DNA from: an uncultured Mollicutes bacterium
GTDB lineage: Bacteria > Bacillota_I > Bacilli_A > Acholeplasmatales > Anaeroplasmataceae
Length of the DNA: 64,000 bases
NCBI GenBank assembly: GCA_945923475.1
Contig: CAMELE010000001.1
Coordinates: forward strand, 99,875 to 163,874
Reading direction: 5' to 3'
The notes beneath the pieces are model-generated. The model had not been told where the DNA came from and made no database searches. It was given only the letters and a program-made list of their open reading frames with translations. The translations under genes were made by a program, and so were the position numbers. Shown here one piece after another: positions 37,854-42,118 of the stretch (positions are counted from its first letter, which is position 1; each line of letters begins with the position of its first letter).

Positions 37854-38145
37854 GTGATAGCCTCCCTAAGAATTCATTTTCTCCACAATCAATATTAAAA
37901 GAGCTATTAGTAAAAATAGTAATTTTATCAATAAAATAATCGTTAATAATATTTACTTTATTATCTGGGAATAACTTTTGTAATTGCTCGTAGAGGTTTC
38001 TACAAGTAATTGTATCAATATCTTTATTAACATGAGCTAAAATAATGTCATTTTTACTAATAGGAATTATTTCAATAGGCGTTCCTTTATAATTACTTAC
38101 ATATCCCTTATCAGTTTTATACATCAATATTGGCCCTTTCTGCAT
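37834..38145 (-). CDS. hypothetical protein (103 aa)
   Basis: ORF. Confidence 0.3.
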   Translation of the reverse strand: MQKGPILMYKTDKGYVSNYKGTPIEIIPISKNDIILAHVNKDIDTITCRNLYEQLQKLFPDNKVNIINDYFIDKITIFTNSSFNIDCGENEFLGRLSHDCDLY

Positions 38146-41100
38146 TTAACTCAATGAAAGATTTACGAGGGCCAACTGATTCGCCCATTAAATCCATGAA
38201 TGTTTTATTAACGAGATTTATATCATCCATTGTAATCTGTTTTAAGGTGCGAGTTTCTGGATTCATAACTAATTCCATTTCATGAGTATCCATTTCGCCT
38301 ACATGTTTCTCCAATATTACTATTGGCACTGACTATTTCTTCGCTCCGGCTAACGTATTAACTGCCATCATCACGCCTACCTTTTTGAAAGTATGTATCA
38401 ATAATACTTCCTACTCCCCGACAAAGGGGATAGTCGATACAGGATTAAACTACGATATTTTTCCAATTCTAATAACTCCATATATTTGTAAAAGAACCAT
38501 ATGTAAGTTTATTAGAATAATCTTTATAAACTTCTCTTATATTTTCTCCATTTTTACGACGTAATCTTATTTGATAAACATCTTGCTCAGTCATTTTAGA
38601 ACGTCCATTTTTACTTCCCTAATTAGAAGTATTATGTTTATGAAAATTTTTATTTTCAATACTATACACTTCTGGCATGATATTTTTCCAAGTATCACCA
38701 TTCCAAATTTTATGAAAACCAGACTCACCAATTAAATTTTTATAATCTTCATAAACTTCATTTTTTCTTTCTTTATTATTATAGCGAGTTCTAATATCAA
38801 TAACATCTTGCTTAGTTAACTTATGACTCGGATGGCTTTCTTCAGCATTAAATTGTCCTCCAGGAGTCATATTATACTAATCAGGGTAAGTATTATAATA
38901 CTTTATATAATACTATTCTTTATCATTAAGCTCTTCTATAGAACATTCTTCTAATATCTCAAAAGAAAAATTATCTATTCCATATTCTAATATGTCTTTA
39001 TATAACTTTTTATTTTTTTCTCTATACCAGTTATATGATTTTTTATGTTCTCTAAAACGCTATTCTATTTGTGTGCTTTGTCCTATATAAGATAAGTTAT
39101 TTATTTTATTGGTTATTTTGTAAATACCAATCATTTTAATTACCTCACTAATTATAAGTAAGATAATATCGCAGTTCTTCCCACGAGATTATCTCCACTA
39201 ATATTTGACGCTTATTCATTTCAGTTTTTCCTGAAATGTCCTAAATATTAGCAAGACTGCCTCGTTAGCCGCAAACTGGAAAATTTTACCAATTCGCGAC
39301 CCCGCCGATTAGCGGAAAAGTAGGTAAGGGCCAGACTTCCTCGTACCCTTTCATACGTCCTAATTCAAAGTTTTTACTATTCATAGTTTTTCTGAATGCT
39401 TCAAGGGCAGCGTCATCTTTAAGATATTTAATATTTGTGCCCCAAGTCGCTTTATAAAGAGGTGGAACCGCAGCGTAAATATAACCTTTTTCAATTAATT
39501 CAGGTGCAAACTTCCAAATAAATGTAAGAAATAAAATACGAATATGGCTCGTGTTTATCTTATATTTCTATAAGCACTGACTATCTCTTACTGCCGTTTC
39601 CTGGTTAACCGACTGCTGAACCAGGAACCGCAGAATCCCATTTCGAAGTGCGTATCAATAGCACTCCTACTCCCCCGATACGGGGATAGTCGATACAGGA
39701 TTAGTTAGTTATCCATTTTTTCTATTTTTTAGAATATATAGGTAAATTACTATAACTTCTACCCCATAAAATTGCTTGAAATGTTTGAAATTTTACTCTA
39801 TCTTTATAATCTTCATAAATAGATTTTGCTGATTCAGTTATATATCTCGTTCGGATTTCTATTATTTCTTCCTCACTAAATTCAGATTTAGCACCATTAG
39901 AGCCTTTGCTATTTTCATAAATATAATATTGTTTATTCTCTTTTGTAAATACCTCTGGCATTATATGAGTCCAAGAGCGACCCTACCATAAGTTTTGAAA
40001 ATAACTAAATGATACTTTATCTTTAAATAATTGATATACTTCTTTTTGTTTTTTATGTTGATTATAACTCTATCTAATAAAATAAACATCAGATTCAGTT
40101 AATTTACAATTTGGATTATTTTCTCCATATAAATTAGTCTGTCCGCATTTATTTTTATTATACCCTACTTTTCTAGCATTATAATATACTTCCCAGTAGG
40201 CTTCTTTTTCATTGAGTTGTGAGATTTCACATTCTTCAAGCACTTCATAGGTAAAAGCGTCTTTACCTAACTATTTTATTTCTATATCTAATGGAATACG
40301 ACTACTTTCTCCTTTTGTCTAATGCTCATAAAATCTTCTTTGTATATCATTAGACTATCCAATATACATTTTCCCATTAGATTTATTTGTAATTTTATAT
40401 ATTCCAATCATTAATAACCAACCTTCCCACGGGATTACCTTCGACTTTACTCGGTCAGGCTTCCCCGTTAGCATAAAATTTTTATTTCCTCACAAGTATA
40501 TGAAAACCATATGGGTCTCATATACTTATTTCGTCCAAAAATTTTATACCCCCGTGATGAGCGGGAAAAGGAATTACAGGCAGCAATTTAATCTACCATC
40601 TACATCAGCATCCGCTGTGATAATAATCTTACCATAACGTAATTTAGATTCGTCCACAATTACTTTACCATCTTTAACCTCAAGACCAAAAGCATCAATC
40701 ATCGCACTAATTTCTTTATTTCCTAATGCTTTATGCAAATCTGTTTTTAAAGTATTAAGAATTTTACCTCTTACAGGCAAAACCGCTTGCGTATTGCGGT
40801 TGCGAGCTTCCTTAGTGGGGCCTTCCGCAGAACGACCTTCAACAATAAAAATTTCACATTCACTTCTATTTTTACTATTAGCATCGCTTAATGTGCCGGG
40901 TAAAATAGTTCTTTTCTTCGTATCAACTTTACGAACGGTTTCTTTAGCTTTTTTCGCTTTTTCGCGGGCCGCGCGCGCCAACATTGCCTTATCTACAATA
41001 GCTTTAGCATCTTTTGGATTATTGTCGAGCCAAATTTTTAAATCTTTTGAGACAAGACGTTGAACAATAGTTCTTGCTTCACTACTGGATAAAACATCTT

Positions 41101-42118
41101 TAGTTTGACCAGAGAAAACCGGGTCAGGCATAATAAATGAAAGAACAAGACTTAATCCTTCTTTGAGTTCTTCACCAGTGATATTAGCGTCTTTCTCTTT
41201 TAAAAGACCTTTATCACGAGCGTATTCATTAATAGAAGTAGTAAGTGCTGTTCTAAAACCGGTCAGATGCGTTCCACCACTATTAGGAATTGAATTAGTA
41301 TAAAGTTTATAAGTGTCGCTATAAGTATCGTTATACTCCATAGCAATTTTTACACCAATTCTATCTTCAATATTTTCAGTATAAAAAATTGAAGTAAGAG
41401 AAGTTTTATTGCTATTTAAATCTTTAATATAATCAAGAATACCATTTTTTGAAGTAATCTCTTCTTCTGGTTTATCAAGATAAGTAAAATGAAATACCAT
41501 ACCAGGAGAAAGATAAGCTAATTCTTGAATTTGTTTTCTTAAAGCATCATAATCAAGAAGAATACCTTCTTTAAAAATACTTTCATCTGGCAAAAATTTA
41601 ACCCAAGTTCCGGTCTCTTTACCAGCCCATTTTTCTTCTTGATAATCTTTTAATTTTCCTTTTTCAAAAGATGCAACAGCGTGTTTACCATCGCGGAAAG
41701 ATGCTACTTGAAAATAACGAGAAAGAGCATTAGTAGCTTTAGCGCCAACGCCGTTCATACCACCAGATGTATTATATCCAGTTTTTCCGTTGCTATCAAA
41801 TTTTGCACCGGTATGAAGTTTAGTATAAATATTTACCAATGTTTCACTACCGTCTTTAGCTTTTCCAAAAGGAACACCACGTCCATTATCGCGGATTTCA
41901 ACATAACCATCTTTAGATACTGAAATATCGCAACGGGTGCAATGACCATTTAAATATTCATCAACCGCATTTGAAATAATTTCAAGAGTAATATGTTTAA
42001 CTCCATCCGGTCCAGTAGAACCAATATACATACCTGGTCTAAGACGAATTGCTTCTATACCTTCAAGAGTTTTAATATCTTTTACTCCATAAGAATCTAA
42101 ATTAATTGTCGTTGCCAT
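38117..42118 (-). CDS. type II topoisomerase subunit B (GyrB-like), 637 aa from 3 exons
   Basis: Exon 1 is 40595..42118 (GHKL ATPase to DADVDG). Exon 2 is 39345..39549 (SHIRILFLTF...PPLYK...RMKG). Exon 3 is 38117..38301 (LGEMDTHEMELVMNPETR...ANIDV). Joining restores DADVDG|SHIR and K-G-L-G-E-M. Both 5-prime splice sites follow U and both introns end in G. Confidence 0.8.
38302..39344 (-). mobile_element. group I intron 2 in the gyrB-like gene (1043 nt) with GIY-YIG HEG
   Basis: Splits the KGLGEM codons (exon 2 ends ...aaa ggg u, exon 3 starts ua ggc). P7-like GACUA (R) and AUAGUC (S) elements. Terminal omega-G. Confidence 0.7.
38445..39134 (-). CDS. GIY-YIG homing endonuclease with two NUMOD/IENR-like DNA-binding repeats (at least 5 TAG)
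   Basis: GIYKITNKINNLSYIGQS, KEQYYIKYYN and YNMTPGG motifs, with TAG at the canonical Q positions. TAA 38445-38447. Confidence 0.75.
39550..40594 (-). mobile_element. group I intron 1 in the gyrB-like gene (1045 nt) with GIY-YIG HEG
   Basis: Inserted directly after the DADVDG codons. Shares 5-prime (uuuucccgcu.aucncggggg) and 3-prime (aga.auagucagugc) conserved elements with intron 2. Terminal omega-G. Confidence 0.7.
39701..40411 (-). CDS. GIY-YIG homing endonuclease (5 TAG)
   Basis: MIGIYKITNKSNGKMYIG[TAG]S, GYN motif, C-terminal NUMOD-like EEEIIEIRTRY. TAA 39701-39703. Confidence 0.75.

Follow-up and report, generated by a model that had tools for sequence, protein, structure and literature searches.

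Group I introns that carry homing endonuclease genes have been described from several systems resembling the locus reported here, a gyrB-type topoisomerase gene on a 64,000-nucleotide stretch (the window) of contig CAMELE010000001.1 from GenBank assembly GCA_945923475.1, filed under an uncultured Mollicutes bacterium. The td intron of phage T4, of subgroup IA2, interrupts a phage gene of nucleotide/DNA metabolism at a conserved motif, and harbors the gene for the GIY-YIG homing endonuclease I-TevI in the loop of helix P6, with its 3' end adjoining the ribozyme core. Group IA introns that encode GIY-YIG endonucleases in nrdE and nrdF of the Bacillus cereus group (I-BthII; PMC2248736) and introns in the Staphylococcus phage Twort occupy several insertion sites per essential gene, are patchily distributed among near-identical strains, include variants with a deleted endonuclease gene, and have open reading frames (ORFs) that start in the P6 loop. 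Passages of a report on the gut "Jug" phages describe group I introns numbering about 18 in each genome, whose splicing was observed in metatranscriptomes (PMC12880540). For the Agate phage, passages of Borges et al. (bioRxiv 10.1101/2021.08.26.457843) describe a group I intron endonuclease with many reassigned stop codons, located within an early gene that has few such codons or lacks them, and propose that the effect is delayed endonuclease synthesis.

The gyrB-type gene of the window shares all of the td features named above for its two introns. Furthermore, P7.1 and P7.2 separate P7 from P3' as in td, the block from J6/7 through P7 to P7.1 is identical at 24-25 of 30 bases, P4 (ACGGGG/UCCCGU) and the J8/7-P7' element are nearly identical, and the endonuclease catalytic domain is homologous to that of I-TevI (PDB 1MK0). 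In contrast, td has the order P1, P2, P3, UAA, P4 and an extended P9-P9.1-P9.2 region, which the window introns do not have. The C-terminal DNA-binding part of the window endonucleases is unrelated in sequence to that of I-TevI and consists of repeats of HKLT.x.DV.xIR.RY, and their genes use TAG as a sense codon. The traits listed for the B. cereus group and Twort recur here, although in a type IIA topoisomerase gene, another host lineage and a recoded genetic code. The abundance of group I introns in a gut-phage genome is shared with Jug. Agate differs in reading TGA as Trp, whereas the window phage reads TAG as Gln, and the passages on Agate and Jug describe neither this host gene nor this intron family. 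No paper reporting a gyrB-type phage gene with a group I intron was found in the full-text literature searched, which is a weak negative. Phage genes with several introns are already on record, as are recoded intron endonucleases, and the window introns add one case.

The interrupted gyrB-type gene and its alleles

Exon 1 ends in GAT GTA GAT GGT (ITADADVDG), after which the unspliced frame runs into RLNCCL and a stop codon. Intron 1 is preceded by T and ends in G; exon 2 begins with AGC CAT ATT CGT (SHIR), and removal of the intron restores DADVDG|SHIRILFLTF. Intron 2 interrupts a Leu codon (AAA GGG T|TA GGC GAA ATG) that reads KGLGEM once the intron is removed. Excision of 40594..39550 and 39344..38302 yields an uninterrupted, full-length GyrB reading frame of 1914 nt that encodes 637 amino acids (aa) and a stop, with GATGTAGATGGT|AGCCATATTCGT and CGTATGAAAGGGT|TAGGCGAAATGG as predicted exon-exon junctions. 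The spliced product contained HATPase_c, DNA_gyraseB, Toprim and DNA_gyraseB_C, all above the Pfam cut-offs, and aligned without gaps at either junction to E. coli GyrB and S. pneumoniae ParE (E ~1e-137, PDB alignments). The GHKL ATPase, the transducer, the Toprim domain with DxDxD and the C-terminal domain of a B subunit were thus all present. These domains and alignments identify the gene as the B subunit of a type IIA topoisomerase of the GyrB/ParE type, a label that does not separate gyrase from topoisomerase IV activity. The original prediction, made from the letters of the window alone, had proposed one gene in three exons at exactly these coordinates, with a U preceding each 5' splice site, a G closing each intron and both insertions in the most conserved motifs; the sequence agrees on each point, the motifs being those of Toprim and GyrB-C, and the alignment to bacterial GyrB that it had proposed gave the gapless E. 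coli match above.

The spliced protein, searched against IMG/VR, matched 70 loci on phage contigs of up to ~200 kb, which were examined for insertions by tblastn; complete genomes of relatives measure 160-200 kb. The gene was uninterrupted, with 98-99% aa identity, in nine loci, and an insertion was located exactly at KG|LGEM in 17. Intron 2 occurred alone in five loci and intron 1 alone in one. Both introns were found, identical to the window over 4002 nt, in two loci from different samples and independent assemblies, the allele being carried by samples ERZ11466718 and SRR11489778, and another locus combined intron 1 with a form of intron 2 whose endonuclease gene was internally deleted, leaving 465 nt. 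ORF-less insertions of 271-287 nt also occupied gyrB sites, including one of 287 nt at KG|LGEM (locus L019) and one of 282 nt exactly at DADVDG|SH (L069). In L054, L055 and L066, an insertion was 7 nt upstream of the DADVDG|SH site, after GAC GT. The product of exon 1 together with the tail that the intron encodes was detected, in exactly this form, in 14 contigs from several samples; in IMG/VR the exact intron 1 junction had no match and endonuclease 1 had distant protein matches only. All four combinations of presence and absence of the two introns therefore exist among phages with 98-100% identical GyrB, and the presence of one intron does not depend on that of the other in these almost identical genes. 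The double-intron allele is no assembly artefact.

The homologue in L066 (IMGVR_UViG_3300029966_000069, 2777..4824; 70% aa identity) is interrupted by three introns of the same family, located after EG of the Toprim motif EGDSA (with a TAG-containing GIY-YIG gene), after DADV (GT|), and at KG|LGEM. Together with DADVDG| of the window, at least four insertion sites exist in this type of gene. Endonuclease 1 has its closest relative (66% aa identity) in L054/L055 (4582..5648), in the intron 7 nt upstream, which has another guide sequence; the guide of the ORF-less intron of L069, at exactly site 1 of the window, is again different. From these comparisons it seems that the lineages of ribozymes and endonucleases were reshuffled around a single target.

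Downstream of gyrB, on its strand and two genes away, lies the gene for a GyrA/ParC-like A subunit; a gene for RNase H and a small ORF are in between. Pfam DNA_topoisoIV was assigned to it in gene calls of identical contigs. Its longest ORF, starting at 37408, shares 80 nt (37329..37408) with the end of the RNase H gene, and in the gene calls of identical contigs it begins later (791 aa), which cuts the overlap to ~30 nt. The near-universal Toprim motif EGDSAGG is EGRSAEG in the window (40838..40818, residues 427-433 of the spliced protein) and EGNSASG in L066, and the catalytic Glu and DxDxD are retained in the window GyrB despite this change. No cultured phage had a GyrB that was more than 43% identical.

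Table 1. Positions of the gyrB-type gene, its introns and other features in the window.
Feature	Position	Strand	Description and basis
gyrB-like exon 1	40595..42118	-	Residues 1-508; ATPase, transducer, Toprim up to DADVDG (ORF list, translation, Pfam, PDB alignments)
Intron 1	39550..40594	-	Group I, 1045 nt (sequence, element coordinates, comparison with relatives)
gyrB-like exon 2	39345..39549	-	Residues 509-576, SHIRILFLTF...RMKG and first base of the Leu codon
Intron 2	38302..39344	-	Group I, 1043 nt (sequence, covariation over 14 homologous introns)
gyrB-like exon 3	38117..38301	-	Remaining Leu-codon bases, GEMD... to TAA stop at 38119..38117; GyrB C-terminal domain
Endonuclease gene 1	39701..40411	-	236 aa GIY-YIG; six in-frame TAG (Pfam, phrog_7168)
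Endonuclease gene 2	38445..39134	-	229 aa GIY-YIG; five in-frame TAG (Pfam, phrog_7168, PDB 1MK0)
GyrA/ParC-like A subunit	34985..37408	-	phrog_551 DNA topoisomerase II, 3e-136
TAG-sense region	478..8077	+	Example of TAG-sense reading
TAG-sense region	12275..14284	-	Example of TAG-sense reading
TAG-sense region	22922..24670	-	Example of TAG-sense reading
TAG-sense region	43318..44619	-	Example of TAG-sense reading
Intron 1 P1 guide strand	40583..40579		
Intron 1 P3 5' strand	40575..40570		
Intron 1 hairpin A	40565..40551		
Intron 1 hairpin B	40549..40471		
Intron 1 J3/4 and P4	40470..40463		
Intron 1 P5	40460..40437		
Intron 1 P4'	40434..40430		
Intron 1 P6 5' strand	from 40428		
Intron 1 P6 3' strand	39700..		
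Intron 1 P7	39691..39687		
Intron 1 P7.1	39686..39671		
Intron 1 P7.2	39667..39645		
Intron 1 P3'	39639..39634		
Intron 1 P8	39633..39591		
Intron 1 P7'	39583..		
Intron 1 P9	39574..39559		
Intron 1 terminal G	39550		
Intron 2 guide	39336..39326		GUCUG (P10) and GCCCUU (P1)
Intron 2 P3 5' strand	39324..39320		
Intron 2 hairpin A	39315..39302		
Intron 2 hairpin B	39300..39268		
Intron 2 J3/4 and P4	39267..39260		
Intron 2 P5 domain	39257..39191		
Intron 2 P4'	39188..39184		
Intron 2 P6 5' strand	from 39182		
Intron 2 P6 3' strand	38444..		
Intron 2 P7	38435..38431		
Intron 2 P7.1	38430..38415		
Intron 2 P7.2	38411..38387		
Intron 2 P3'	38380..38376		
Intron 2 P8	38375..38342		
Intron 2 P7'	38335..		
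Intron 2 P9	38326..38311		
Intron 2 terminal G	38302		

Ribozyme fold and subgroup of the introns

The Rfam search of the window was null and carries little weight (see below), and the fold was therefore worked out by comparison of relatives and tested on an alignment of 14 site-2 introns from which the endonuclease genes were removed. In this alignment, 98.1% of the cells formed standard pairs in the proposed structure, compared with 36-43% when the partners were slid, and 25 of 77 pairs had changes on both sides, versus 2-4 in the slid controls; none of 500 shuffles matched the observed pairing values. The double changes included P3 (3/5 pairs), P7.1 (3/5), P7.2 (5/8), P8 (3/6) and P9 (3/6). 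P4, P5 and P7 were invariant among the 14 introns, but the two window introns differ from each other by compensating changes in P4 (CGGGG/UCCCG and CGAGG/UCUCG) and in P5 (GCCU/AGGU and GUCU/AGAU). The helices of intron 1 are common to L054, L066, L069 and the Enterococcus phage VRE9_3, with different sequences and compensating changes.

At the 5' splice site, P1 carries a U•G pair in both introns. The exon bases AAGGGU pair with GCCCUU in P1 of intron 2, and in 3 of the 14 relatives a compensatory change from A-U to G-C was found between exon and guide (AAAGGGU/GCCCUU to AAGGGGU/GCCCCU); its guide GUCUG pairs with the 3' exon UAGGC in P10. For intron 1, P1 is formed by GGU|AG with CUGCC, and P10 by the exon bases AGC with GCU. 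Both introns contain P7 as GACUA/UAGUC, the element on which the original prediction had drawn, and both have the endonuclease ORF in the loop of P6, which gives a place to the peripheral loop that it had mentioned. The core comprises P3-P8, P4-P6 and P7, including the P3/P7 pseudoknot. A single P9 with a GNRA-type loop is followed by 9 nt up to the terminal G. Based on the shared fold, motifs and covariation, both insertions are assigned to the td-like subgroup IA of group I introns. The kinship of the two introns, another part of the original prediction, is borne out by their common motifs and architecture and by the similarity of their endonucleases. A motif scan of the window for more copies of the family returned these two only.

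Regarding a finer subgroup, the hallmark of IA2, P7.1 and P7.2 between P7 and P3', was present, with covariation in both helices and a sequence that resembles td. On the other hand, the extended domain 9 (P9.0/P9.1/P9.2) and a P2 between P1 and P3, IA2 features as described in PMC4227781, were lacking, and the introns were therefore filed as td-like subgroup IA without a finer subgroup.

Several candidate pairings were rejected. Placing the 5' strand of P3 at the textbook position before UAA-P4 gave wobble pairs in intron 1 only; this position fails in intron 2, L066 and others, and the strand that adjoins P1 covaries instead. An 8-bp complement in intron 2 (CGGCUAAC/GUUAGCCG) lacks conservation in intron 1 and conflicts with the topology of the fold. 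In the minimum free energy fold of intron 2, the P3 strand paired with G+UAGG, located at the 3' splice site; this was not accepted as the conserved pairing because the exon is constant while the P3 strand varies with its internal partner. A MAFFT alignment of six intron-1-type relatives was out of register in P3 and P8.

The loop of hairpin A is complementary to the conserved loop of P7.2 (UAUUGAUAC), as UAUCA/UGAUA in most relatives. The complementarity comprises 4 nt in intron 1 of the window and AUC/GAU alone in intron 2, and both loops change together in L066 (4080..4350), to UGUCAA/UUGACA. The two loops may form a kissing-loop tertiary contact. The intron of the Enterococcus phage VRE9_3 (PP680569.1; also EF1 and EF5) has the same unusual helix order, the conserved motifs GCUAACGGGG, CGUGGGAA and CCUGUAUCGACUAUCC and the same P7.2 loop, with 84% identity over the P7-P7.2 region; it differs in its host gene, the standard code and a cultured Firmicutes host. 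This intron (L072, ~2108..3128) interrupts a gene ending in ...GGRRHSGLIDE|V, where only hypothetical proteins and a homing endonuclease are annotated, and ~700 nt downstream a second, sub-threshold Intron_gpI match was observed (3776..4020, 31.5 bits). Features that may define a structural subclass are the absence of P2 from its usual place, a P3 strand abutting P1, two conserved hairpins between P3 and J3/4, and the contact between hairpin A and P7.2. It is doubtful, and is proposed here only tentatively, that the introns represent an undescribed subclass of group IA of this kind, spreading in TAG-recoded gut phages and cultured Enterococcus phages with an endonuclease that is silent until TAG is read as Gln.

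Endonuclease genes, TAG recoding and proposed homing

Both intron ORFs begin with MIGIYKITNK...YIG(Q)S and end in a TAA adjoining the 3' strand of P6, and TAG is the sole stop type in frame. When TAG was read as Gln, Pfam GIY-YIG (PF01541) was found above the cut-off in endonuclease 1 (1.4e-8) and endonuclease 2 (1.7e-8), and both matched the homing endonuclease family phrog_7168 over their full length (1e-25 and 7e-39, respectively). Endonuclease 2 also aligned to the I-TevI catalytic domain (PDB 1MK0/1LN0; E = 2e-5), including the columns of the catalytic Glu and Asn. The two endonucleases are 39% identical to each other (E = 2e-49). All 12 orthologues of endonuclease 2, including the window copy, are 229 aa long and intact (62-99% identical), and the L054 orthologue of endonuclease 1 is likewise intact (66% identical). 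TAG is the only type of stop codon in frame in the orthologue ORFs as well, and in 6 of the 11 TAG-containing columns of the endonuclease 2 orthologues it alternates with CAA or CAG. By homology and conservation, both ORFs are classed as intact genes for I-TevI-like GIY-YIG homing endonucleases, in agreement with the original prediction.

The coverage of the window by long ORFs rose from 72.5% to 90.5% when TAG was treated as sense. In-frame TAG occurs in 35 of 70 window ORFs, including NrdD, RecJ, a DnaB-like helicase, PhoH and an endolysin, the last of which has nine. The G+C content of the phage is 32%. TAG is most likely a sense codon for Gln (code 15) across the window. Since this recoding is spread over the ORFs of the window, it is a trait of the phage and not peculiar to the introns; the original prediction had recognized the recoded endonuclease genes correctly, but the recoding is not specific to them. 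The share of TAG among Gln-type codons is 15% overall; it reaches 38-45% in the pair of endonuclease genes but is 0% in the exons of gyrB, as well as in a DnaE-type polymerase (15140..19129), an RNA ligase and several other genes. By analogy, the contrast between the endonuclease genes and gyrB matches the pattern, and the interpretation, published for the TGA-recoded Agate phage.

The exon sequences at site 2 differ between alleles with and without intron 2. All 18 alleles with the intron read CGT ATG AA(A/G) GGG T|TA GG(N), whereas none of ~50 intron-less alleles has GGG at that codon, and those nearest to the window read CGA ATG AA(A/G) GGT CTT GGA. The differences (CGT/CGA, GGG/GGT, TTA/CTT and GGC/GGA) are all synonymous and fixed, and the codons on the intron side are those that pair in P1 and P10. 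Compared with intron-less alleles, 16 differences fall in the 60 nt that end at site 2, versus 0-7 in other 60-nt bins. The length of the donor-type tract upstream varies among intron 2 alleles, and in some of them the tract takes in a one-codon indel (NSKNFEL versus NRSFEL). Endonucleases of the I-TevI type cut upstream of the insertion site. The exon tracts at site 2 are consistent with the footprint expected of double-strand-break repair with co-conversion, mainly upstream. Together with the presence/absence polymorphism of near-identical alleles, these tracts lend indirect support to cleavage of the intron-less allele and to homing. Targeting of the codons of critical residues is a known strategy of homing endonucleases (PMC3984707).

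Explanation of the locus and its implications

The locus is very probably a single GyrB/ParE-type gene of an uncultured phage that reads TAG as Gln, interrupted by two related mobile group I introns. The pre-mRNA would splice itself through guanosine attack and exon ligation and yield a normal GyrB. The endonucleases would be translated only where TAG is read as Gln, probably late in infection, once a suppressor tRNA becomes available. During mixed infection, they would cut intron-less gyrB alleles near the insertion site, and repair from the intron-bearing copy would transfer the intron together with a flanking exon stretch (homing with co-conversion). The endonuclease genes would later decay, giving the deleted and ORF-less versions seen in relatives.

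Several points weigh against this explanation. Splicing, endonuclease activity and its timing are all deduced from sequence. The scan with Rfam Intron_gpI (RF00028) that the original prediction had proposed gave no match in the window, either at the gathering score or at E<=10 and both for narrow stretches and for the full length, and a scan of three whole relatives gave no group I match. ORF-less homologues also missed the curated threshold: in L019 Intron_gpI was the top family, at 23.4 bits (E = 4.8e-4). The related Enterococcus phage intron scored 14.5 bits, and the T4 td intron, used as a control, reached 40.3 bits against the cut-off of 50. The null result in the window is uninformative because the td control falls below the cut-off too. 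The 5' strand of P3 begins only 1-3 nt after P1, two hairpins stand between P3 and J3/4, and the lone P9 hairpin is accompanied by neither P9.1 nor P9.2. P1 of intron 1 is short (3 exon and 2 intron base pairs), and the helices of intron 1 come from a manual comparison of six divergent relatives and not from a formal count. Furthermore, no tRNA genes, including any suppressor tRNA, were detected in the 64-kb window.

Three of these points, namely splicing deduced from sequence, Rfam scores below threshold and the short P1 of intron 1, would also fit former group I introns that have lost splicing and left the double-intron gyrB of this phage dead. This is highly unlikely, since the exons are intact and retain 98-99% aa identity despite ~56-91 nucleotide differences, almost all of which are synonymous. 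The identical allele recurs in independent samples, the ribozyme helices stay paired through compensatory changes, the exon codons that P1 and P10 require are the same in every carrier, and the gene of the A-subunit partner is intact. It is more improbable still that free-standing endonuclease genes have split gyrB into fragments that are translated separately and assemble later, as in T4 gene 39/60 and the fractured nrd genes. Passages of the literature do report split topoisomerase and nrd genes in T4-like phages, but here junction 2 lies within a codon, and the 68-aa exon 2 is contained in no ORF of at least 40 aa with a start codon (standard-code ORF list). In addition, the flanking non-coding parts form a conserved, covarying ribozyme fold, and ORF-less insertions, 271-287 nt long, are found at those very sites. 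The probability of inteins or some other element acting at the protein level, or of an assembly chimera, is almost negligible: passages of PMC4760082 describe inteins as common in GyrB and replication genes, but the host frame meets TAA 7 and 21 codons past the junctions, the Pfam search found no intein domain, and the same structure occurs in many independent assemblies (IMG/VR, ENA and Logan).

The original description of the arrangement as uncommon is overstated, as L066 contains three introns in the same gene and both intron-rich gut phages (PMC12880540) and a recoded intron endonuclease have been published. Standard gene callers fragment the gyrB gene, as seen in the gene tables of identical contigs, and the introns escape Rfam; phages of this kind therefore have to be annotated with code 15 as well as with dedicated intron models. 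The population-level evidence of mobility is good, and the locus and its relatives offer a very clean natural data set for intron homing, in which near-identical genomes carry none, either or both of the introns, as well as decaying endonuclease genes, and in which co-conversion tracts can be read directly from the gyrB sequences. A type IIA topoisomerase offers no fewer than four insertion sites in its catalytic Toprim and C-terminal motifs. The locus also provides a second, TAG-based case of an intron endonuclease strongly enriched in reassigned stops inside a stop-free early gene, and the TAG-enriched endonuclease genes support the published idea that recoding times endonuclease expression.

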